Below are positions 6,065 to 58,385 of a stretch of 64,000 nucleotides of DNA, piece by piece. How positions within the stretch are numbered: the first letter of the stretch is position 1; each line of letters starts with the position of its first letter. Under the pieces are notes generated by a model that ran no database searches, was not told where the DNA came from, and saw only the letters and a program-made list of their open reading frames with translations. The position numbers and the translations under genes are program-made. The stretch is from Verrucomicrobiota bacterium (GTDB taxonomy: Bacteria > Chlamydiota > Chlamydiia > Chlamydiales > Rhabdochlamydiaceae): assembly GCA_018240015.1 (NCBI GenBank), contig JAFEGJ010000005.1, positions 236,570 through 300,569 on the forward strand, in the 5' to 3' direction.

Positions 6065-6561
6065 ATCTTTTAAGAGCGATTCCTTGGTGGGGCTACATCT
6101 TATTTTTTTCTCTGATAGGACTGGCCCTCAAAGCGCGCAAACCCCAAGTGATGTCCGTGAGCAAAATTTTCCTCATGCCTCTGATCTTCACCCTTTGGTC
6201 TCTCTATAGTGTTTTTGCATCGCACACCATTTTCTTCTCTACATTCATCTGGCTTCCGTTTCTGGTTGCCGGCGCAGTCTTCGGATGGATTCTGTACCGG
6301 CCCGTGACCGTTCGTGCAGATCACAAAAAACGGCTCATTGAAATTCCCGGAACGTGGGCAACACTTGCCCTGGTTCTCATCATCTTTATTATCGAATACA
6401 CTTTGGGATATCTATACGCCAAACATCCCAAAGCCGATAAGAGCCATTTAATTTTTGGCCTGCGCATGGTGACATCGGGGGCGATTACCGGAATCTTTGC
6501 TGGAAAGGCGCTTTTACTGATGCAGAAGTTTCATAAGGCGCCTCAAACGGATTTGACTTAA
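6058..6561 (+). CDS. membrane protein, function unknown
   Basis: ATG at 6058 is 7 nt after GGGAGG and overlaps the upstream stop. Four to five hydrophobic helices. Confidence 0.65.
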   Translation: MLDLLRAIPWWGYILFFSLIGLALKARKPQVMSVSKIFLMPLIFTLWSLYSVFASHTIFFSTFIWLPFLVAGAVFGWILYRPVTVRADHKKRLIEIPGTWATLALVLIIFIIEYTLGYLYAKHPKADKSHLIFGLRMVTSGAITGIFAGKALLLMQKFHKAPQTDLT

Positions 6562-6571
6562 GAGGATTCTG

Positions 6572-7570
6572 CTATACTTCGACCAGTTGTTTGCCGAGGT
6601 TTTCTCCTGAAAAAAGACCCAAAAAAGCAAGGGGAATATTTTCTAGGCCCTTGACTATGCTCTCGCAAGATTTAACTTTTCCATCGTGCCACCATTCTAA
6701 CAATTGCTGGCGCCCTTCAGGATATCGTGTGGGATAGTCTTGAGTAATCAGGAATCCTCTTGCTGTGGCGCTTTTAACGATCAAATGACGAAAGTTGCGA
6801 GGGCCAGTATCAGGACTTACTAGATTGTAAGAAGAGATTTGGCCACAAAGGACAACACGCGCATGCCGATTGATTTGCTTCATGACTTCATCGGTGATAG
6901 TGCCGCCAACATTGTCGAAATAAATGTCCACCCCATCTTTGCAAGCATTTTGTAGAGAGCTCACCCAATCGGAATTCTTATAATTAACGGCTGCATCAAA
7001 TCCCAGCTTGCTTTCAAGGTAACGAGTTTTTGCATCCGTTCCAGCAATCCCTACGACTCGGCATCCTTTAATTTTGGCAATTTGGCCCACAATCATTCCT
7101 ACCGCTCCAGCAGCTCCGGAGATGACCACCGTTTCTCCCGGTTTGGGTAGGCCAATATCTAGCAAACCAAAATAGGCCGTCATCGCCGGCATTCCTAGGA
7201 CGCTTAAGGCTGTGGCGACAGGCACACCCTTATCAATTTTCCATAGAGAAGATCCAGACAAAGCAGAGTAGTCGGCCCATTCTAAGTAGCCGCAAACATG
7301 ATCACCTTTTTGAAAATCAGGATGCTTCGACATAACAACTCGGCCCGCTCCATCCCCATTTGCCGGGGAATTTAAGGGAAAAGGAGGGTGCGAAGAAGGG
7401 CGTCCACCTATTCGGCCGCGCATATACGGATCGACAGATAGATAAAGCGAACGAACGAGGACCTCTCCTTCTTTTAATTCTGGCACCGAACCCCTATGCA
7501 GAGTAAAGTTATCTACGGTCGGCAGTCCTTGAGGTCGTGATATGAGATGAATTTGGCGGTTATTTTCCAT
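6572..7570 (-). CDS. NADP-dependent oxidoreductase, MDR superfamily (YncB/CurA/PTGR1-like)
   Basis: ISGAAGAVGMIVGQIAKIKGCRVVGIAG cofactor loop and typical N-terminus (RPQGLPTVDNF). Start taken at MENNRQ. Confidence 0.85.
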   Translation of the reverse strand: MENNRQIHLISRPQGLPTVDNFTLHRGSVPELKEGEVLVRSLYLSVDPYMRGRIGGRPSSHPPFPLNSPANGDGAGRVVMSKHPDFQKGDHVCGYLEWADYSALSGSSLWKIDKGVPVATALSVLGMPAMTAYFGLLDIGLPKPGETVVISGAAGAVGMIVGQIAKIKGCRVVGIAGTDAKTRYLESKLGFDAAVNYKNSDWVSSLQNACKDGVDIYFDNVGGTITDEVMKQINRHARVVLCGQISSYNLVSPDTGPRNFRHLIVKSATARGFLITQDYPTRYPEGRQQLLEWWHDGKVKSCESIVKGLENIPLAFLGLFSGENLGKQLVEV

Positions 7571-7638
7571 TAGATTAAGTATGCGGATCCTACTTTTCCC
7601 TGACAAATAAAAATTCGCGCTTTAAAATGAGGCTTAGT

Positions 7639-7935
7639 TTAAGCCGCTTTCCATGGCTTGGGTGAACCCTTGGCATTTTGCCGGCGCGTGATTTCCCATT
7701 GACGATAGGGCTTTTCCAGGCGCTCCCAAAATGCAGGGGAAGTACCCAGTGCCGCAGCAAGGAGTGCAGCCGTTTCCTGATTGATCCCTTCCTTGCCCTT
7801 CAAAAGATCTTCGACCTTTTTTTCGGGCCACTGGAGTTTGGCTGCGAGCTGCTGGGGTGTCATACCCAGCGGCGCTAAAAAATCTTCCTTGAGGATTTCT
7901 CCGGGGGCTGTCGGTCTGCGGCGTTTGGGTGTCAT
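7639..7935 (-). CDS. higA: HigA-type antitoxin (XRE helix-turn-helix)
   Basis: PGEILKEDFLAPLGMTPQQLAAKL...INQETAALLAAALGTSPAFW matches HigA/VapI-type antidotes. There is a 4-bp overlap with the upstream toxin gene. Confidence 0.85.
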   Translation of the reverse strand: MTPKRRRPTAPGEILKEDFLAPLGMTPQQLAAKLQWPEKKVEDLLKGKEGINQETAALLAAALGTSPAFWERLEKPYRQWEITRRQNAKGSPKPWKAA

Positions 7936-14935: not shown

Positions 14936-16021
14936 ATGCTCGATAAGTTCGTCAATGGGTTCATTTATTTTGGCCTGCCTGTTGTGGCGGCCTATCATGC
15001 ACTAACGGGCAATATTTTTCTCAATGTTGCTGCCGAAGATGCTAGTGGCCTTGAGTATTTAGGAAACGCCGCCCTGACTCCTGTACAATACCTCCTCAAC
15101 GGCAAAGTCGCTATCCGCGAGGGAGATAACTATGTTCTCGAGCAAAAGTTTGATTACCATAACCACCTTCCTTTAAAGAGCACCCTGTCCTTCTTATCCC
15201 TTCCCATCTCTCTTTCCGTCGGGACCCTTCTGAAAGCAGCTGCTTATTTTACAGAGGAAACACGCCGGCATCACGAACAAATTGCCTCGGCCCAAAATTC
15301 TCGCTCGGTCAAGCCCAATATCGATTACTATCGCAGTGTCGGACTTCCTATTTCTGACACCGCAGCGTCCATCGATTCTCCTGAGCACAAACGCCGCCCC
15401 TGCGATGAAAACAAACTCGCCTCCGAAAAAGCCCTTCTCAAAGAAATCTCTCAAATCCTCAAATCCAATCAAATCCCTTTTTGGCTCGATTGTGGTTCTT
15501 GTCTCGGAGCCTATCGCTACGGGGGACTCATTCCTTGGGATTGGGATATCGATGTTGCTATCTTAGCGAAAGATCATGACAACGTCATGCATGCCTTAAA
15601 GGCTCTCGATCCTGCCAAGTATCAAGTTCAAGACTGGTCCAATCGTATCCGTCCCAAAACCTATATCCGCGTCTACAACCGCGAAACCCGCAACCATCTC
15701 GATCTCTACCATTTTGCCATCGATTCCAAGACAAAAACGCTTGCCTCTATCCTATCCAACGAAGAGAGTTCTTTCATGGTTGAATCGTGGAAGATTAGGG
15801 AAAGACGCTTCACTATTCCCACCTCCTATGACATCATTTTTCCTCTCCGCGCCGCGAAATTTGATGGCATCGACGTCTTTGTTCCCAACCAAACAAAGAA
15901 ATACCTCCAACAGCGCTACGGCGAAAACATCGGTCCCGTCCGCATATACAACGAAACAACCGGCATCTACGAAAAAGACGAATCGCACCCCTACTGGCAA
16001 CTTCCCCACGCCAGTGGTTAA
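14936..16021 (+). CDS. LicD-family (phosphocholine/ribitol-phosphate-type) transferase with N-terminal extension
   Basis: LDCGSCLGAYRYGGLIPWDWDIDVAI is the LicD nucleotidyltransferase-fold signature. It is preceded by a ~170-aa hydrophobic/unknown region. Confidence 0.8.
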   Translation: MLDKFVNGFIYFGLPVVAAYHALTGNIFLNVAAEDASGLEYLGNAALTPVQYLLNGKVAIREGDNYVLEQKFDYHNHLPLKSTLSFLSLPISLSVGTLLKAAAYFTEETRRHHEQIASAQNSRSVKPNIDYYRSVGLPISDTAASIDSPEHKRRPCDENKLASEKALLKEISQILKSNQIPFWLDCGSCLGAYRYGGLIPWDWDIDVAILAKDHDNVMHALKALDPAKYQVQDWSNRIRPKTYIRVYNRETRNHLDLYHFAIDSKTKTLASILSNEESSFMVESWKIRERRFTIPTSYDIIFPLRAAKFDGIDVFVPNQTKKYLQQRYGENIGPVRIYNETTGIYEKDESHPYWQLPHASG

Positions 16022-16037
16022 TTCGATATAAAATAGT

Positions 16038-16404
16038 CGGGCTCTTCGAGCCCGATGAATTAAATTGAGATTTTTGGATTTCCTTAGACATGTCGGGGGC
16101 TGCGCCCCCAGCTGCCCCCTTGAGCCGACTACGGCTTTGCAAAACCGGATCCTCCCAAGTCCTCGGCGTGCGGAGCACAACCTCGGCTTGTTCAGACCGG
16201 TTTTGCTGTGCCATAGCGGCCGCGGGCTGCTCGCACGCGCTGTCCCTGCCTTCGGCAGAGCAGCATCGGCTCGCAGACACAGTTAAGCGAATCAGACATT
16301 TCTCTACACTCTTTAGTAATGTCTGCGAGGAGACGCGAACTTGAGCGTAGCGAAAAGGGCGCGCGATGAGCAGCCCGCTTAATTCATCGGACTCGCAGAG
16401 TCCG
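16038..16404. repeat. GC-rich structured element bounded by 26-nt imperfect terminal inverted repeats (candidate ncRNA or MITE-like insert)
   Basis: 16038-16063 CGGGCTCTTCGAGCCCGATGAATTAA matches the reverse complement of 16379-16404 at 23 of 26 positions. Each end is a 7-bp/3-nt hairpin. The interior has several strong helices. Confidence 0.6.
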
Positions 16405-16417
16405 CCTTTTCATATCT

Positions 16418-17395
16418 TTAATGCAGGATGCCGCTGCTTTTGTACCACTCAAAGGTGTCTTTGAGGGTGTCGGTGAGGGGGCGGGGATAGAACGCGAGTT
16501 CTCTTTTGGCTTTGGAACAGTTGATGTTGCGATTGCAGCGGAGCAGCACTTCTAGTGTTTCATTAGTATAGAGCGTCGGTGTGTTCGTGATCACGCTGTA
16601 GGCTTTGGCCAGGGGCACTCCCATGCGCGCCAGCCAGTTAGGTGTGGTGAACTTGGGCGCAGATTTCCCTGTGGTTTCTTGAACGAGAAGGGCTAGTTCG
16701 CGGACCGTTTTCCAGATGCCTGAGATCAGATACCGCTCGCCCGATTTTCCTTTTTCAAGCGCGGCAATGGCGGCTTTGGCGACATCGCGGACATCGACGT
16801 AATCGAATCCTCCGGAAATCAGCGCAGGAACTTTGCGATTATAAAGAGCGATCAGTCCTTGTCCCAGGAGAGACGATTGAAAATCATTGGGTCCGATGAC
16901 AGCCGTCGGAGTTAAAATCACGGCATCGAGTCCTTGGACGATTCCCTTGAGTACTTCTTTTTCGGCTTCGGATTTGGAGACGTCGTGCAAAAGACCCTCG
17001 CTTCCTACAAAGGGGCGGGTTTCATCGAGCTCTTCGTTGGGAGTTTGTTTGAGGGCGTGAATGGAGCTGACATAGAGAAGGCGGCGTACGCCTTTTGCGA
17101 GGCAAGCTTCGACGACATTTTTTGTGCCTGTTACGTTGACTTGGTGGACGGTTCCGTCGGGATCGCCATCGATGGAAATTTTCCCTGCTGCATGAATGAC
17201 ACAGTCGGCGTCGGTAACAAATTTTGCAAGACTTTCGGGGTCCATGATATCGCCACGGACTTTTTCGAGGTCGAGTCCTTCGAGGGCGTTGGAATGGATA
17301 TGGATCATCGCCTTCACCTTGTAGCCTTTTGCAAGCAAGGCGCGGCAGATGTTATTTCCGATGTGTCCAGAAGCTCCTGTGACCGCGATAGTCAT
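16418..17395 (-). CDS. NAD(P)-binding extended-SDR protein (dihydroflavonol-reductase/epimerase-like), possibly atypical
   Basis: IAVTGASGHIGNNI Rossmann motif. The usual YxxSK position reads HDVSK. The start at 17395 has an ATGA overlap with the umuC stop. Confidence 0.8.
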   Translation of the reverse strand: MTIAVTGASGHIGNNICRALLAKGYKVKAMIHIHSNALEGLDLEKVRGDIMDPESLAKFVTDADCVIHAAGKISIDGDPDGTVHQVNVTGTKNVVEACLAKGVRRLLYVSSIHALKQTPNEELDETRPFVGSEGLLHDVSKSEAEKEVLKGIVQGLDAVILTPTAVIGPNDFQSSLLGQGLIALYNRKVPALISGGFDYVDVRDVAKAAIAALEKGKSGERYLISGIWKTVRELALLVQETTGKSAPKFTTPNWLARMGVPLAKAYSVITNTPTLYTNETLEVLLRCNRNINCSKAKRELAFYPRPLTDTLKDTFEWYKSSGILH

Positions 17396-20035: not shown

Positions 20036-20046
20036 CTCCTTGTTTG

Positions 20047-20204
20047 CTCGGTACTAGATAAAAATTTTCTCGCAGGGCCGGCTGCGGCTTTGCATAATCG
20101 ATCCTCCTCCTCAGAAATAGCGCTTTGGCTATTTCTTTCGTCGGTCGGATCCATTCTGCTTTGCCTCGCTCGCCCCGGCGAAAAAATTTTTATCCAGCAC
20201 CGAG
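20047..20204 (-). repeat. ~158-nt extended imperfect hairpin (candidate structured 5' leader or palindromic element)
   Basis: 22-nt arms 20047-20068 / 20183-20204 pair with 2 mismatches, which become G:U only on the minus-strand RNA. A central 9-bp hairpin AGAAATAGC/GCTATTTCT is present. Confidence 0.5.
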
Positions 20205-20291
20205 CTAATTCCATCAAATAATCATTTTACAATTGAATTTCAAGGAAAAGAATTGAGCAAAACGACTTTTTCCGGTATCTTTTTGCCTTTT

Positions 20292-20364: not shown

Positions 20365-20372
20365 AAAGAGCT

Positions 20373-20540
20373 GGTTACAAAACCCTGGCGCAGCTAAAAA
20401 CGCCCTTTTGAGCCAGTTTGACATCCCACCCCCGAGCCCTACTCTACTTAGAGTATGTGCTCGGAGGTGGGAGAGCCGCATAGCGGCTGGCAAACTGGCT
20501 CAAAATCATCGTTTTTTTCTTGCGCCAAAGTTTTGTAACC
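20373..20540 (+). repeat. ~168-nt extended hairpin filling the tRNA-Ala/tRNA-Ile spacer
   Basis: Nested inverted repeats: GGTTACAAAAC/GTTTTGTAACC, TGGCGCA/TGCGCCA, TTTTGAGCCAGTTTG/CAAACTGGCTCAAAA (15 bp perfect), CCCACC..CCGAGC/GCTCGG..GGTGGG, and apex ACTCTA-CT-TAGAGT. Confidence 0.6.
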
Positions 20541-20552
20541 AACTCTGTTTTT

Positions 20553-20626: not shown

Positions 20627-20662
20627 ATTGTCAAATAATTACTTCCCATCTATAGAAGAACC

Positions 20663-21967
20663 ATGGGAAGGTTTTTCCTCTGTTTTCTCATTGGCACGAC
20701 ATCTCTATTTTCTCTCACCGTCGAAGAGGTGGAGAAAATGGCGCTCGAGAATAACCCTGACATCCAGTCGGCCATCGCCCTTGTCGAAAAGGCCCATCAA
20801 AGCCGACTATCCGTCATCGGCAAATGGCTTCCGCAACTGTCTCTTCTGTCCCAAGCATTCCGAACGCAAAAACCCCTCGAGTTTTTTCAATTCAAAAAAC
20901 CTTCGGCCTTTTTCACGCAGCTCTCGCTAACACAAACGGTCATCTCGTCACCACTTTTGCACGACATCAAAGTATCGTCCTTCATTATAGATCAATTTAA
21001 ACAGCTCGTGGAAGCCGCGAAAAACGACATTTTGTACAAAGTTCGTTTGCAATATTATCTCGTCGCTCTCGACAGACAAAAAGTTGCCACAGCTGAAGAA
21101 CACATCAAGCTTCTGGAATACCTAGCCGAAGAGATGGCCTCGCGCCATCAAATCGGTGAAGCAACACCCTACAACGTCAACCAAGCCAGAGTCGCCGTCG
21201 CTAACGTCCAAGAGAGGTTTTACCGAGTATTTGAGCAGCTCAAAGCCGACCGTGACGAGCTCGCGCGTCTCATGGGCATCGATCCTTCCCAAAACCCCTA
21301 CGATTTTGCGCAGACTGACATCGATCTCACGAAGATTCCCAACCTCAACTTCGAGATCGAGCAGCTTCCGATGGAAGAGTTTACGAAGTGGCAAGAGATC
21401 GCCGATCGGTGCCGTCCTGACATACTCCTCAGCAAAACACTTTTGAATGTCGCGGAGGAAAAAGTCCGCACCCATGAAGGGGAGTATTGGCCCAAGCTCT
21501 CGATTTTGGGCGGTTATGGCGGCGGCTCCACGCCGTATTTGGAAGTTCCCTCGGAGCGATTTAACAACCAAGTCTTCCAGTGGGCTGTGGGCCTCTCGCT
21601 CAACTGGAACCTCTTCGACGGTCTCTCGCGCGAAAGGAATATCCGCGCTGCCAAGGCCGAAGTCTCATCAGTTCGCCAAGATGCGAAAAAAACACTCCAA
21701 GCCGCCCATACCGACGTGCGCCACCAACTCTACAAAATCGAAAAGTCCCTCGCCAAATACCGCACCGCTTCCGCCAACCTCGAGCTCGCTGTCGAGACGA
21801 TGGGGCAAGCTAGATCCCAGCTCGAGATCGGCTACAGCACCCTCTCGGACTATCTCATTTCTGTCGACGGCTGGGTGCAAGCCAAGACCAACTACGACGA
21901 GGGGAAATTTGAACTGCTGGCCTCCTATTTTGGCCTGCTACACGCATCAGGAGAAATGACACCATGA
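20663..21967 (+). CDS. TolC-family outer-membrane efflux channel
   Basis: Signal peptide, two-fold repeat architecture, and the typical N-terminal LTVEEVEKMALENNPDIQ block. First gene of a three-gene overlapping operon. Confidence 0.85.
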   Translation: MGRFFLCFLIGTTSLFSLTVEEVEKMALENNPDIQSAIALVEKAHQSRLSVIGKWLPQLSLLSQAFRTQKPLEFFQFKKPSAFFTQLSLTQTVISSPLLHDIKVSSFIIDQFKQLVEAAKNDILYKVRLQYYLVALDRQKVATAEEHIKLLEYLAEEMASRHQIGEATPYNVNQARVAVANVQERFYRVFEQLKADRDELARLMGIDPSQNPYDFAQTDIDLTKIPNLNFEIEQLPMEEFTKWQEIADRCRPDILLSKTLLNVAEEKVRTHEGEYWPKLSILGGYGGGSTPYLEVPSERFNNQVFQWAVGLSLNWNLFDGLSRERNIRAAKAEVSSVRQDAKKTLQAAHTDVRHQLYKIEKSLAKYRTASANLELAVETMGQARSQLEIGYSTLSDYLISVDGWVQAKTNYDEGKFELLASYFGLLHASGEMTP

Positions 21968-22854
21968 AAAAAAACACCTTTTTTATCACCATGCTCAGCC
22001 TTCTTTTTGTGCTGCTGGGCACCGGAGCTTGGATGCTTTGGTTTTGGCCCTACGTACGCACCAACGATGCTCTCATCGATGGCTTTAAAGCCGCGATCTG
22101 TCCCGACATCTCTGCGCGCATCGTCAAGCTCTACGTCGATGAAGGCAGTATCGTCCGTGCCGGTGATCTTCTCTGCGAACTTGATGACACGATTCTGCAG
22201 TCGCAGCGCGCCGAAGCTGAAGCCCGGGTTCTCACCCTCCAAACAAAAATTGTCCTCCAGCGCTTCCACTTCGAAAAAATCCGCAATGACTTTGAACGGG
22301 CCAAGCACGGGTTTGAAGATGGCGTCACAACAGCCCAGATGCTCGACCACGCGCAGAAAAACCACGGCATGGCCAAAGCACGTCTCGAAGCTGCCGAGGC
22401 CTCACTTGAGCAGGCTAAAAAAGAGCTCGGCGTCGTCGTCGAGACGATTGCCCACACCAAAATCTACGCACCGTTCGATGGCGCCATCGTGCGCCGCTGG
22501 CTCTATGCCGGCGACGTTCCCGCCGTAGGCCAAGCGATTTTTTCCCTCTACGATCTTAAAAACATCTGGGTCGTCGCTAATTTAGAAGAGACCAAAATGA
22601 AAAATGTCCGCCTCGGTAGCCCCGTCGATATCCACATCGACGCCTATCCAGGCATTACGTTCCATGGCAAAATTTTCGTGATCAAAGGCGCTGCCGCTTC
22701 CGAGTTTTCGCTCATTCCCCAAGATAATGCGACCGGTAACTATACCAAAGTCGCTCAGCGTGTCCCCCTTAAAATCTCCATCCAACCCGAAAAAGATGCT
22801 CCCTATCTTTTTCCGGGCCTTTCTGCTGAAGTCAGAATCCAGGTGCGCCAGTGA
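21964..22854 (+). CDS. HlyD/EmrA-family periplasmic adaptor
   Basis: N-terminal TM, coiled-coil centre, and IYAPFDGAIVRR / ANLEETK lipoyl/beta-barrel blocks. ATGA overlap with the upstream gene. Confidence 0.85.
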   Translation: MKKNTFFITMLSLLFVLLGTGAWMLWFWPYVRTNDALIDGFKAAICPDISARIVKLYVDEGSIVRAGDLLCELDDTILQSQRAEAEARVLTLQTKIVLQRFHFEKIRNDFERAKHGFEDGVTTAQMLDHAQKNHGMAKARLEAAEASLEQAKKELGVVVETIAHTKIYAPFDGAIVRRWLYAGDVPAVGQAIFSLYDLKNIWVVANLEETKMKNVRLGSPVDIHIDAYPGITFHGKIFVIKGAAASEFSLIPQDNATGNYTKVAQRVPLKISIQPEKDAPYLFPGLSAEVRIQVRQ

Positions 22855-24449
22855 CCTCGAGTTGGAACACGCCCCGCGGCATCGACCCGAAAGGCCGCCT
22901 CTTTCCCTGGCTCATCCTGGCCAACACCACCATCGCCACGTTCATCGGCGGGGGCTCGGCTGTCGCTGGCTTTGTCGCCGACTCTAACATCCGTGGCGCG
23001 TTGCAGATGAGCAGCGACGACCTGCAATGGATCTCTATCTCGTTCATCATGATGCTCGGCATCATCTTGCCCCTCGCTGTGTACTTGGCCGAGCGCTTTG
23101 GTTATAAGCGTATTTTCTTTGCTGGTATCGCCTTCCTCACATTTGGATCCCTGCTCAATGGCCTGGCCTTTAACTTCCACACGTTCTTACTCTCGCGCAT
23201 GCTCGCCGGCGCGGGCGCCGGTGCGCTCTTTCCTTTGAGCATCGCCATCATCAATCAAACCATGCCCGCCAGTCGCATGCCGCTTGCCATGGCTCTGAAC
23301 GTCGCGTTTGGATTTGGTTTTGGCAATGCCCTCGGTTACTATCTCAGCGGCTATCTTTGTCAGTGGCTCTCATGGCCCTATGCGTTCATCGTATTTTTTA
23401 TCCTCGGACTTCCCGTGCTTCTTGCCACCTGGATCATCCATCCCGAGACTCCTCCGCAAAAAGACCGCGTCTTTGACCGTTTTGGATATGTGCTCTTCAC
23501 GGTTTTTTTAACCGCTCTGTTACTGACCCTCAACAACGCCAAAGCCGCATGGAACACCGGAGGGTGGACCTCGCCCTGGATCCTTAGCACGATCTTTCTT
23601 TGTGTCTTAAGCCTTGCGATTTTGATTCCTTGGGAGTGGAAACATTCTCAGCCGATCATTCCCCTTCAGCTCTTTAAAACCCGGTCGTTCACCTTCGGAA
23701 TGCTCGCCGTGATCCTCATCGGTGCCTCTCTCTACGCCAGCCAAATCTACGCGGTTAATTTTTACGATGGCGCCCTCCACTGGCAAAAGCAAACCATCGG
23801 TGCCCAGATGGCCGTTCAGACACTCTATTTAGGGTTTATGAGCACCGCTGTGGCATTTCTCTCCAAGCGTGTGAGTATCTTGCTCCTGACGTTCTCAGGT
23901 CTTGCCATCCTAGCGATTTCGTGTTTCTTGCAAATGAACGTCACCCTCTACAGTGACCCCAACAAATACCAAATGCTCCTCAACGCGCGCATGATCGCCA
24001 CCGCCCTCGCGCTCGGCCCTGCCACAGCACTGGCTCTTCGAGAGATCCCCCAGGCACTCGGGGGCGCAGCTTCGATGCTCGTCACCTTTGCGCGCCAAGT
24101 CGGCGGCACCATCGGTGTGGTCGCGTTTTACGATGTGATCTATGACCGGGCGATCTTCCATGGACAGATGTTTGGAGCGCAGGTAGACATGACAAACCCC
24201 CGCCTGCAGCAAACACTGCGAAGTGTCCAGCTCCATCTTGAGCGAAACTGTGGACTACTGCCGCCAGAGGCTACAGTCCAAGCCACTGACATTTTTCGGG
24301 CGAATGTTGTCACTCAATCGCAGGTGACAGCAACGGCGGATGCTTTTTATGCCCTTGGGTGGATTATTGCTGTTGTTTCGAGTCTGTTGCTCTTAGAGGT
24401 GTTGTGGGGGTGGATGAAGAGAAATTCGGCTGTTGTATCGGCCGAATAG
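22851..24449 (+). CDS. MFS transporter, DHA2/EmrB-like (14 TM)
   Basis: About 14 hydrophobic segments. LSRMLAGAGAGALFP motif-C-like block. GTG start overlaps the adaptor stop. Confidence 0.85.
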   Translation: MTSSWNTPRGIDPKGRLFPWLILANTTIATFIGGGSAVAGFVADSNIRGALQMSSDDLQWISISFIMMLGIILPLAVYLAERFGYKRIFFAGIAFLTFGSLLNGLAFNFHTFLLSRMLAGAGAGALFPLSIAIINQTMPASRMPLAMALNVAFGFGFGNALGYYLSGYLCQWLSWPYAFIVFFILGLPVLLATWIIHPETPPQKDRVFDRFGYVLFTVFLTALLLTLNNAKAAWNTGGWTSPWILSTIFLCVLSLAILIPWEWKHSQPIIPLQLFKTRSFTFGMLAVILIGASLYASQIYAVNFYDGALHWQKQTIGAQMAVQTLYLGFMSTAVAFLSKRVSILLLTFSGLAILAISCFLQMNVTLYSDPNKYQMLLNARMIATALALGPATALALREIPQALGGAASMLVTFARQVGGTIGVVAFYDVIYDRAIFHGQMFGAQVDMTNPRLQQTLRSVQLHLERNCGLLPPEATVQATDIFRANVVTQSQVTATADAFYALGWIIAVVSSLLLLEVLWGWMKRNSAVVSAE

Positions 24450-37712: not shown

Positions 37713-37881
37713 CTACGTGAGCTCGGTTTTTAATTCATAGGAGAAATGGTCAGATTTTTGAGGATTTTTGATCACAAAAGCACAGCAAATAGCCCAGAGG
37801 GTACTATTTGCGCGCATTTTGGGGTCAAAAAGACCGAAAAGATGGCCATTTTGCCATGAAAGAAAAGCCGAGTTCACGTAG
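37713..37881 (+). repeat. ~169-nt extended imperfect hairpin in the intergenic region (candidate structured RNA)
   Basis: 14-nt arms CTACGTGAGCTCGG / CCGAGTTCACGTAG, with one G:U that works only on the plus-strand RNA. Inner pairs AAATGGTCA/TGGCCATTT. Apex GCAAATAG...CTATTTGC. Confidence 0.5.
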
Positions 37882-40585: not shown

Positions 40586-40637
40586 CAGCACTGGGTGAAA
40601 ATTGATAGAATCGGCAAGACGTGATACTGTTTTTTTT

Positions 40638-41633
40638 ATGCAAGCTCTGAGTTATGACTCTCAAGGACCTTTTCAAGCCTTTGATCAAAAAGCAACAAGT
40701 AGCTCTATACCCAAAACTGAATGGCGCAATCTGGAGAAGAAAAATAATAACCAGATCATCGTCGATCGACAATTTCGGGCTTATTTTCCCCTTTTTAAAA
40801 GCACCCTTATCCGTGTGCCAGGAGAGGCATCCTATGTTCCTTTTAGTGAGATCAAAGATGGGTCCAACATATCGCTTGCAATCACAAGCTCTCCTTACGA
40901 GAAGCATTTTGGTATTTTTTGGAAAACCATAGCCCACATAGCAAATGAAAAAAAGAGCAGCGAAATTGCGATTGTAATGATATGCGCGCAAAGTCAGCAG
41001 CAATCAAAAGATGTTGGTTGGGACCCTTACTGGTCGGAAGGTACACTTTTCCTTGAAGATGTCTCGGTTAAGCTAGATTCTCAAGAATCCACGGAACACG
41101 TCATTTACCGAACATTTACATTGCAGTGCCAAAATAAAACGACAACTGTGAAACATTACCATTTCCACATGTGGCTAGATGGTGAGTATGATATACCTTC
41201 AATCGTTGAGTATGGGCCTGTATTTAAAAAGTTGACAGAATGCATTTGTCCTGTCGTTGTTCATTGCCGCGCTGGAATATTCCGTTCGGGTATTGTGAGC
41301 ATTGCTTTAATGACTCTCAAGAAGCTGCAAGTCTTTAATAAGTCAATTAATGAGGAAGTTGTAGACCGACATATTTGGGAAAGTCTTGATGCTCTGCGGC
41401 ATCCAGAAACTGGGCGATCCTACTTAATGGCACCCACAAAAGATAATTTGCTTGTAGCAAGAAAAATTGTCTATCACGTCTGGAACTCTATGAAAAGCCA
41501 ATCTTCTGACATGCAGAGTTTTCCCCAGCAAATTTCTGCCGAAAATAATAGTTTATCTTCCCTTCGGCTATGGACTTTGCTTATTAGGGAACAGTCAGCA
41601 TTTTTGACCATCCGAGTAAAACGCCGTTTCTGA
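40638..41633 (+). CDS. classical (eukaryote-type) protein tyrosine phosphatase
   Basis: VVHCRAGIFRSG fits [IV]HCxAGxxR[ST]G (nt 41262-41291). The upstream FHMWLDGEYDIP is WPD-loop-like. An alternative TTG start exists at 40602. Confidence 0.75.
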   Translation: MQALSYDSQGPFQAFDQKATSSSIPKTEWRNLEKKNNNQIIVDRQFRAYFPLFKSTLIRVPGEASYVPFSEIKDGSNISLAITSSPYEKHFGIFWKTIAHIANEKKSSEIAIVMICAQSQQQSKDVGWDPYWSEGTLFLEDVSVKLDSQESTEHVIYRTFTLQCQNKTTTVKHYHFHMWLDGEYDIPSIVEYGPVFKKLTECICPVVVHCRAGIFRSGIVSIALMTLKKLQVFNKSINEEVVDRHIWESLDALRHPETGRSYLMAPTKDNLLVARKIVYHVWNSMKSQSSDMQSFPQQISAENNSLSSLRLWTLLIREQSAFLTIRVKRRF

Positions 41634-41649
41634 CGCAGTCAAGCAACGG

Positions 41650-42237
41650 TTAAAAGAACTGTTCTTTGACGAGGTGGACAACCCCGGTCATGAGCATCTG
41701 GATGGCGATCAGACAGATGAGCATCCCGCCGAGGCGCTCGCATGCGAGAAGTCCTTTCTGACCTAGTAAAAATTTTATGTTAGAGGCTGCGAGGAGAATG
41801 ATCGTGGAGGGGATCCATGCGAGGAGGATGGCTGTGCCCACGAGCATGGGGTTGAGGGTCTGCTGAGCAAAGATCATGACGGTGGTGATGGCGCCGGGGC
41901 CGGCGATCACGGGGATCGCGAGGGGGAAAATGAACGGCTCCCGCTCGGGGTGCTTATGGGCGGTGTCTTTGGGGAAAATCATCGAGAGGGAGATCAGGAA
42001 TAGAAGGATACCGCCGGCGATCCCAACGACGCCCTGGCTAATGCCGATCAGGCCGAAGATCTCGTCTCCAAAAAAGTTAAAGAGCATGAGGATGCAAAGA
42101 GCGATGAGGCACTCGCGCAGGATGATCCGGCGCTGCCGCTTGACGGGGTAAGAGCCGAGGATGCCGACAAAGAAAGGGACGTTGCCCAGTGAGTTAAGAA
42201 TCAAAAAAATCGAAACAGCGATGGAAAAGAGAGCCAT
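41650..42237 (-). CDS. MarC/UPF0056 family membrane protein
   Basis: Six TM segments. N-terminal ...LNSLGNVPFF and mid-protein AIPVIAGPGAITT blocks typical of MarC. Confidence 0.8.
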   Translation of the reverse strand: MALFSIAVSIFLILNSLGNVPFFVGILGSYPVKRQRRIILRECLIALCILMLFNFFGDEIFGLIGISQGVVGIAGGILLFLISLSMIFPKDTAHKHPEREPFIFPLAIPVIAGPGAITTVMIFAQQTLNPMLVGTAILLAWIPSTIILLAASNIKFLLGQKGLLACERLGGMLICLIAIQMLMTGVVHLVKEQFF

Positions 42238-46425: not shown

Positions 46426-46455
46426 AAATTGGCAGCGCATTTGCGCTGCCAATTT
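46426..46455 (+). terminator. perfect 14-bp stem hairpin downstream of the porin-like gene
   Basis: AAATTGGCAGCGCA-TT-TGCGCTGCCAATTT, starting 26 nt after the stop codon. No long T tract follows. Confidence 0.55.
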
Positions 46456-46471
46456 ACTTATGGGGGAGATC

Positions 46472-46702
46472 ATGCGTTATTTTTGGTTTCTTTTAGTTAT
46501 AGCTAGCGTTGCTTGGGGAGATAGCAAGCATGATCACGATCGTGATCATCATGAAAAAGAACACGAACATAAGAAAAAACACGATGACGAGTCCAAAAAA
46601 AGAGATCGTGATCGTGAAAAACATCACGATAAAGAAAAGCATCACTCGCAAGCTGAAGAGGTCGAGGAAAATTCCATAGAAGCGGCTACTGATACTCTCT
46701 AG
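46472..46702 (+). CDS. small secreted His/Asp/Lys/Glu-rich protein
   Basis: MRYFWFLLVIASVAWG signal-like N-terminus, then HDHDRDHHEKEHEHKKKHDDESKKRDRDREKHHDKEKHH. It stops 1 nt before the glgB ATG. Confidence 0.6.
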   Translation: MRYFWFLLVIASVAWGDSKHDHDRDHHEKEHEHKKKHDDESKKRDRDREKHHDKEKHHSQAEEVEENSIEAATDTL

Positions 46703-46703
46703 T

Positions 46704-58106: not shown

Positions 58107-58155
58107 AGATGGTATTATGGGTACTTACAAACAAATGCTTTTATGCGCAAGTGCT

Positions 58156-58253
58156 GATACTCAGCCAAAAGTGGCAAAAAAACGAGATTTGGCTGAGTAT
58201 CGATAGATAACCAGCCAAAACTATCCTTTCAGGACCACTTTTGGCTGATTATC
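58156..58253. repeat. four copies of the motif GATA-n-n-CAGCCAAA(A) in alternating orientation
   Basis: Copies at 58156-58174 (+), 58187-58201 (-), 58206-58220 (+) and 58235-58253 (-). Copies 1 and 4 share 18 of 19 nt (GATAnTCAGCCAAAAGTGG). Confidence 0.7.
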
Positions 58254-58385
58254 AGATATGCCATTATTTTGGAGGATTAGCACGAACAATTTAACCGCCT
58301 GGTTACCTGGTTATATGGTGCTTGCAATTGTGATATATTTGAATATATCAAAACTTGAGAAAATGTTGCATTGAAGTATATGAGC

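Follow-up and report, generated by a model that had tools for sequence, protein, structure and literature searches.

Genomic context and ends of the element

The window analysed here, the whole stretch of 64 kb under study, carries two convergent genes separated by an unannotated and highly structured intergenic segment. The gene on the left (14936-16021, + strand) encodes a LicD-family protein (Pfam PF04991) with 100% identity to MBS0615910.1, and the gene on the right (16418-17395, - strand) encodes an NAD-dependent epimerase/SDR protein (Pfam PF01370), the start of which at 17395 was backed by 325-aa orthologues in relatives. The element between them has a length of 392 bp (16025-16416), beginning 3 nt after the LicD stop codon and finishing 1 nt before the stop codon of the epimerase gene.

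The first-pass annotation had bounded this element with 26-nt inverted repeats. These ends were found as quoted, with 16038-16063 reading CGGGCTCTTCGAGCCCGATGAATTAA and the reverse complement of 16379-16404 reading CGGACTCTGCGAGTCCGATGAATTAA, and the two match at 23 of 26 positions. The repeat was under-called there, as it really extends over 39 nt: the left terminal inverted repeat (16025-16063, GATATAAAATAGTCGGGCTCTTCGAGCCCGATGAATTAA) and the right terminal inverted repeat (16379-16416, TTAATTCATCGGACTCGCAGAGTCCGCCTTTTCATATC) showed an inverted match of 84.6%. With ends of this length, the element spans the distance from the LicD stop codon (16019-16021) to the epimerase stop codon (16418-16420) almost exactly. 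A search of the 64 kb with a degenerate pattern of the ends and 3 mismatches allowed returned 2 sites, both of them ends of the element, where 0 were expected from 100 shuffles. The part ATATAA.A.AGTCGGGCTCT of the left repeat was common to the window copy and to a homologous copy at the related locus L009, which is described below.

The interior of the element was confirmed to be GC-rich. Its GC content was 0.59, with a peak of 0.667 at 16100-16249, compared to 0.472 for the window and 0.48-0.52 for the flanking genes, which places the interior 12 points above the window mean.

End hairpins and terminator-like signals

A hairpin with a 7-bp stem and a 3-nt loop was present at each end as had been proposed. 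The terminator scan reported the left end hairpin (16037-16055) on the - strand, with a stem of 7-8 bp and a GAA loop on that strand followed by CTATTTTATA, and the right end hairpin (16388-16404) on the + strand, with a 7-bp stem and a GCA loop followed by CCTTTTCATA. The G>A / C>T difference between the two ends is a compensatory change of one stem pair, as the first-pass annotation stated, and by rough hand arithmetic the chance that two of the three differences fall on one stem pair and keep it is approximately 2-3%. When oriented outward, six hairpins could all be aligned, namely the two ends of the window element, the two ends of the L009 copy and the solo hairpins that follow the LicD gene at L001 and L003. 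In this alignment 89.6% of the cells were paired, 2 stem pairs were compensated, the stems had 7-8 bp and the loops 3-4 nt, and the loop was always G(N)NA.

Read outward, both ends of the window element and the left end of the L009 copy showed a T-rich tail after the hairpin and were terminator-like in the consensus scan. Read inward, the end hairpins had no T-run. The proposal that the element is flanked by matched terminators is thus half right, as the hairpins resemble terminators for transcription that leaves the element and not for transcription that enters it. Since the T-rich tail lies on the outward side of each hairpin, incoming transcripts should run through the element as far as the opposite hairpin and stop there, and judging from these signals the element probably also stops transcription in both directions between the convergent LicD and epimerase genes. 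No promoter-like site of the sigma-70 type was found by scan in 15700-16700.

Folding and internal organization

The predicted fold of 16030-16412 reached -175.4 kcal/mol for the + strand RNA (z = -7.3 vs shuffles) and -196.1 kcal/mol for the - strand RNA (z = -9.9 vs shuffles), and folding of 16022-16417 with DNA parameters resulted in z = -6.8. The internal helices that had been listed by eye were recovered. The 11-bp perfect pair was found at 16222-16232 / 16368-16378, and the helices 16129-16148 / 16197-16216, 16263-16279 / 16320-16336 and 16293-16303 / 16315-16325 were seen with the repeat finder as well as in the predicted folds. A hairpin described as a UUCG tetraloop had been misread, and CTGCCTTCGGCAG (16246-16258) forms a 5-bp stem with a UUC triloop.

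Three internal parts were identified between the ends. A linker (16064-16120) holds a GC hairpin and the invariant block TAGACATGTCGGG (16085-16097), which is identical in the window and L009 copies and includes the perfect palindrome GACATGTC. Comparison of the window and L009 sequences showed that the ATG within this block opens no conserved reading frame. The linker is followed by module A (16121-16225), an imperfect hairpin of approximately 105 nt and the most repeated part of the element, and by a right-hand palindromic domain of 157 nt (16222-16378), which contains the UUC-triloop hairpin and folds at -71 (+) and -79 (-) kcal/mol. Another invariant block, GCCGCGGGCTGCT, was located at 16219-16231 and was likewise identical in both copies. 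Overall, a core of approximately 215 nt (16025 to about 16291), including module A, was conserved between genomes with the core blocks TAGACATGTCGGG, CCTCGGCGTG..CCTCGGCTT and GCCGCGGGCTGCT, and the invariant blocks are mutually complementary on the + strand with G.U pairs.

The folded structure itself was kept unevenly between the two copies. In the UUC-triloop hairpin the loop was unchanged and three of the five stem pairs were altered with compensation (CUGCC/GGCAG in the window vs ACCCC/GGGGU in L009). The block GCGGGCUGCU has its partner at 16368-16378 in the window and at the upstream AGCUAGCCC in L009, and the long stem of module A was poorly kept in L009; the set of helices is therefore only partly conserved. 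Within the right-hand domain, homology to L009 covers the left arm as far as about 16291. L009 has no counterpart of the right arm (about 16300-16378), which gave an inverted match to the left arm (nhmmer E = 0.0075), so that either part of the domain was duplicated in inverted orientation in the window or L009 has lost it by deletion. The - strand of the window copy folded 21 kcal/mol better than the + strand, with 16 vs 8 G.U pairs, and the L009 copy reached -142.5 vs -144.3 kcal/mol on its two strands and showed no asymmetry. An assignment of the functional strand from the G.U counts was rejected as too weak, given the values of 16 vs 8 in one copy and the equality of strands in the other.

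Comparison with known RNA families and proteins

A search of Rfam 15 at the gathering threshold identified only two tRNAs in the whole window. The element matched no Rfam family credibly either at that threshold or at E ≤ 10, and the same was found for the L009 copy. The best sub-threshold scores were 19 and 14 bits with miRNA models and 15 bits with Acido-Lenti-1, for which the gathering score is 37.

The ORFs of the interior were short and overlapping, in agreement with the first-pass annotation, and they had no match in Pfam and no homologue among 5.8 billion proteins. A phmmer match to P0127 (E = 3e-6; 1.84 billion representatives) was discarded as spurious, as BLASTP with composition correction found nothing. 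In addition, the reading frame was not kept between the window and L009 copies. The first-pass annotation had considered that the region might turn out to be a decayed fragment of a GC-rich protein gene, and these three results (no Pfam match, no homologue and no conserved frame) speak against such an origin.

Copies and empty sites in related genomes

The window was compared with the contig loci L001, L002, L003, L006, L008, L009, L010, L013 and L014 of relatives, of which L009 is another stretch of the L001 contig. The three related genomes were approximately equally distant from one another, with 75-78% nucleotide identity in genes. At the junction of the LicD and epimerase genes, L003 has 46 bp with a single hairpin and is empty of the element where the window is filled. 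The same junction is occupied by a hairpin and then a 515-aa Ank/SET gene in L001 and L002, by three small ORFs in L008 and by Fic and BNR genes in L006. The interior of the window element had no similarity to the junction contents of relatives with blastn or tblastx. The junction (window 16022-16417) is a hot spot, with contents that differ in every lineage examined.

A search for homologous copies and empty sites had been proposed as a check, and it returned both. The homologue of the element was identified in L009 at approximately 7290-7640, within a 372-bp intergenic region between a Legionella_OMP gene and the next gene. Its ends are inverted hairpins, GGGCTCTGGCGAGCCCGAGGG and CCTTCGGGCTCGCTAAAGCCC, at 7304-7324 and 7586-7606 (21 nt at 86%). 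Alignment of the window and L009 copies with blastn gave two segments, one of 73 nt with 78% identity and one of 72 nt with 75% identity (E of about 9e-7 for each), and the alignment extends from the left terminus to about 16291 with several invariant blocks. The site of the L009 element was empty elsewhere, with spacers of 16-18 nt in the window (34962-34979), L010 and L013. The two genomes thus carry the element at different loci, and each of these loci is empty in other genomes, which argues for dispersed repeat DNA and not for a conserved RNA gene. At L009 7626-7653, the DNA that arrived with the element gives a -35-like TGCACA 16 nt upstream of a resident TAAAAT before the next gene, which may be a case of promoter donation.

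Module A was also found on its own. A second copy lies in the window at 20074-20178, with a local alignment z of 9.1, a score reached by 0 of 200 shuffles, and with both arms conserved. A covariance model (R1) built from the module A copies at 16121-16225 and 20074-20178 recovered a third one at 7404-7506, within the L009 element (25.5 bits, E = 2e-4). In the 64-kb window there were one full copy and one additional module A, and 42 kb of the sister genome contained a full copy together with a solo hairpin. The MITE-like reading offered by the first-pass annotation gained support from the absence of the element at the L003 junction, the homologue at another locus and the recurrence of module A at a distance of 4 kb.

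The solo hairpin after the LicD gene has the orientation of the window left end in L001 and that of the window right end in L003. The presence of these solo hairpins at the same junction suggests that the window copy may be old and vertically inherited from an ancestral element, and not a recent insertion. In addition, the identity between copies (75-78%) equals that of the coding genes of both genomes, which points to sequence constraint beyond selfish spread.

Searches of wider collections did not extend the family. The end pattern CGGNCTCNNNGAGNCCGATGAATTAA had 0 matches in an exact-pattern scan of public genome and metagenome contig collections. The module A pattern had 2 chance matches inside Firmicute coding sequence in the genome collection and none in the metagenomes, and of two core motifs searched in viral contigs, one had no match and the other had two chance matches. 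No blastn match to the element was found in plasmid and phage records. Comparison with the empty sites showed no target-site duplication, neither at 16025/16416 in the window nor at the junctions of the L009 copy, although such a duplication may have decayed. Finally, a Pfam scan of window ORFs with 150 aa or more, which covered about 46 of approximately 52 main ORFs, detected no transposase, integrase or tyrosine-transposase (Y1) domain.

Other palindromes in the window

Five long palindromes were present in the window, and only the pair formed by the 16-kb element and the 20.0-kb palindrome, which share module A, was significantly related. Three of the others (20041-20213, 20366-20545 and 37713-37878) were absent from the orthologous sites of relatives. 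The palindrome at 20041-20213 has a length of 173 bp and 62-nt arms that are 76% complementary, lies just upstream of tRNA-Ala and carries module A nested in its centre. It is absent from L003, where there is a 6-bp gap, and its outer arms show no relation to the 16-kb element's ends. The imperfect palindrome at 20366-20545 (180 bp) lies between tRNA-Ala(TGC) and tRNA-Ile(GAT), where the gap in L001 is 10 nt. No rRNA genes are found near this isolated tRNA pair.

The imperfect palindrome at 37713-37878 (166 bp) lies between a DAO-type oxidoreductase gene and a metallo-beta-lactamase-fold gene and is absent from L009, L010, L013 and L014. It has the ends CTAC...GTAG and is flanked by a 7-nt direct repeat CGTAGGA (empty site AGCGTAGGA|TAGTAAG), folds at -88 (+) vs -66 (-) kcal/mol and is more REPIN- or MITE-like than the main element. 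The first-pass annotation had reported that a string from the right repeat, TTAATTCAT, recurs near 37730. The string does occur there, inside this unrelated palindromic insertion, and the two regions are no more alike than expected by chance (z = 1.3, with 30 of 200 shuffles as high). The fifth palindrome (58150-58260, 111 bp) has 21-nt arms that are 95% complementary, lies between M32 carboxypeptidase and F-box-like genes and is weakly similar to the 20.4-kb palindrome (z = 4.3).

Outside the window, a near-perfect palindrome of 158 nt (76-nt arms, 91% complementary) follows the citrate synthase gene at L006 20699-20856; it is unrelated in sequence, and L006 belongs to a relative that is more distant, with a LicD protein 63% identical. 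The clade seems to acquire long palindromic insertions repeatedly.

Interpretation of the element

Overall, these results are best explained if the segment 16025-16416 represents a single copy from a family of non-coding, non-autonomous palindromic repeats of the MITE/REPIN-like kind that had not been described before, and we place the probability of this reading at about 0.65. No description of such a family in Chlamydiae was found in the literature. The family is dispersed, as seen from the homologue at another locus with empty sites elsewhere and from the recurrence of module A. The window copy carries an extra inverted duplicate that turns its right-hand part into the 157-nt palindrome. 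A trans-acting enzyme that recognises the hairpin ends would spread the copies, as for MITEs and REPINs. Once in place, the element would act as a two-way stop or insulator for the convergent LicD and epimerase genes, and a transcript from either gene that crosses it and stops at the far hairpin would leave a long, stable and structured 3' end on both mRNAs. The single bidirectional hairpin of L003 would serve as the same two-way terminator at that junction.

The first-pass annotation had also offered a stand-alone structured small-RNA gene, in which the core would be functional as RNA and the end hairpins would terminate its transcription. The very negative folding z-scores of both copies, the 75-78% identity across loci at the level of coding genes, the UUC-triloop kept through three compensated stem changes and the complementarity of the invariant blocks on the + strand with G.U pairs are all in keeping with such a gene, as is the better fold of the window - strand (21 kcal/mol, 16 vs 8 G.U pairs). 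However, neither copy has an Rfam match at E ≤ 10, no promoter-like site accompanies the element, and relatives lack the element at the syntenic site, whereas a copy lies at a non-syntenic position. The strand asymmetry, itself weak, is not seen in L009 (-142.5 vs -144.3 kcal/mol), nearly all helices are plain inverted repeats that fold approximately equally on either strand, and helices differ between the copies, with other partners for GCGGGCUGCU and a poorly kept module A stem in L009. An RNA gene of its own is thus unsupported and is considered unlikely. The element could instead have been built on the spot, by inverted duplication of a resident terminator hairpin and growth of the interior at a recombination hot spot, through copying by template switch or fold-back. 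This would fit the L001 hairpin oriented as the left end and the L003 hairpin oriented as the right end, the lack of a target-site duplication, the right arm of the palindrome, which repeats the left arm in inverted orientation and has no counterpart in L009, and the LicD|epimerase junction with contents that differ in every lineage examined. Local construction would leave unexplained why the sister genome has a homologous core of 215 nt, with the same ends, at an unrelated locus that is empty in other genomes, and why module A recurs at 20074-20178, and the interior resembles nothing else nearby, so that we regard this origin as improbable.

A decayed gene remnant, or foreign DNA integrated at an insertion hot spot, would account for a GC content 12 points over the window mean at a junction that holds cargo genes (Ank/SET, Fic and small ORFs) in relatives. 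Such an origin is most doubtful, as the element had no blastn or tblastx similarity to the cargo genes, no Pfam match, no protein homologue and no match in plasmid or phage records, its frame is not conserved between copies, and nested inverted repeats are not a product of gene decay. Within the preferred reading of a dispersed repeat family, the core of approximately 215 nt might act as a folded RNA or single-stranded DNA in the movement of the element itself or in the control of neighbouring genes. This reading comes from a core as conserved between genomes as the protein genes are and from the mutual complementarity of its invariant blocks, and we hold it to be quite improbable. If true, it would describe a mobile structured-nucleic-acid module in chlamydia-like bacteria, akin in spirit to the guide or bridge RNAs of some insertion sequences, but in a transposase-less element.

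Comparison with known repeat elements

The element was compared with MITEs by their general properties, in part as given in PMC10969869, PMC5896051 and PMC3184786. It resembles MITEs in being short, non-coding and intergenic, in its terminal inverted repeats and long-hairpin fold, in its presence at some orthologous sites and absence at others, and in that it can carry transcription signals. Its length of 392 bp is within the criterion of under about 600 bp, yet larger than that of most MITEs. It differs from MITEs in that no target-site duplication and no known partner insertion sequence were found, in that the ends are themselves hairpins, and in its modular composition, with module A found alone inside another palindrome.

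REPINs are similar to the element in that two short inverted hairpin units pair and enclose a folding spacer, which results in one long hairpin overall. The REP unit is an imperfect palindrome of 20-40 nt, which the end hairpins of the element fit, and compensatory changes and solo hairpins are features in common. REPs are located mostly downstream of genes, and GTAG-tagged REPs have been reported in the PVC superphylum (PMC3116915, PMC3337134, PMC3733652). The spacers of REPINs are 71 or 110 nt in P. fluorescens and 20-100 nt in most dimers (PMC3116915, PMC3733652). In contrast, the spacer of the element is 315 nt (261 nt in L009) vs 20-110 nt. The GTAG/CGTC tag is also absent, as the left end in the window reads ATAG-T-hairpin and the right end, in reverse complement, AAGG-hairpin, and GTAG-T-hairpin is read only in the solo hairpin of L003. 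In addition, REPINs are present in high copy number and are mobilised by RAYT tyrosine transposases, which are encoded by a single-copy gene, whereas only two end hairpins were present in 64 kb and no RAYT gene was seen in the scanned ORFs. The element therefore fails one defining feature of each class, namely the target duplication of MITEs and the GTAG tag with short spacer of REPINs.

Rickettsia palindromic elements (RPEs) and comparable repeats in obligate intracellular bacteria are also palindromic non-coding insertions that multiply in the genome of an intracellular lineage and vary between close relatives. RPEs measure about 100-150 bp, carry a CGTC tag and often sit inside genes, in frame. 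They are mentioned in PMC3733652, and the element showed no similarity to them in sequence. Bidirectional intrinsic terminators share with the element a GC-rich hairpin that is A-rich on one side and T-rich on the other and lies a few nt after both stop codons, a description that is exact for L003. In the window, by contrast, the hairpin is doubled, with 315 nt of structured DNA in between and T-tails on the far sides.

An IS200/IS605-derived element was rejected as a candidate. Such an element requires subterminal hairpins in the same orientation with the same loop, and the ends of the element match only as inverted repeats. The end loops read TTC and GCA on the + strand and GAA and GCA when read outward, and the inversion extends to the 9 nt on the inner side of each hairpin, so that the ends are truly inverted and do not fit this class.

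Mobile DNA in Chlamydiota is poorly described. In this setting, an unannotated structured segment that reads as repeat DNA and not as a new RNA gene helps to guard against false ncRNA calls in metagenome-assembled genomes. Five long palindromic insertions were present in 64 kb, with four of the four testable ones absent from relatives, and their positions are the ends of genes, the gap within a tRNA pair and the junction of an operon. Elements of this type can provide terminators, promoters and RNA-processing sites, and they are useful markers of recent genome change in unculturable bacteria. Unusual features of the element are its hairpin ends with G(N)NA loops, a spacer that is long and structured, the lack of target duplication and gene-like conservation, and they make it a reasonable candidate for studying element movement in Chlamydiota.

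Host and other features of the window

The record of MBS0615910.1 is labelled "MAG: Verrucomicrobia bacterium", and the named homologues of this LicD protein are from Rhabdochlamydiaceae, Chlamydiales and Chlamydiae. For two window proteins the closest named homologues are from Rhabdochlamydiaceae or Chlamydiales. The window encodes eukaryote-like domains in an F-box-like protein (58386-59990) and a tyrosine phosphatase (40602-41633), and a Legionella-type outer-membrane (Legionella_OMP) protein. On these grounds the host is taken to be an uncultured chlamydia-like bacterium of the PVC group (Planctomycetes-Verrucomicrobia-Chlamydiae), and the Verrucomicrobia label may be wrong.

Three gene-sized insertions were specific to the window in comparison with the sister genomes: an OEP/HlyD/MFS efflux operon after tRNA-Ile (20648-24257), a tyrosine-phosphatase gene between radC and marC (40587-41653) and a zinc-type alcohol dehydrogenase gene (6533-7638). 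Finally, a small ORF at 46473-46703 follows a strong hairpin (46431-46454) and encodes a product with a signal-peptide-like N-terminus and a tail rich in His, Asp, Lys and Glu (HDHDRDHHEKEHEHKKKHDDE...), a composition from which it may be a metal-binding secreted peptide.
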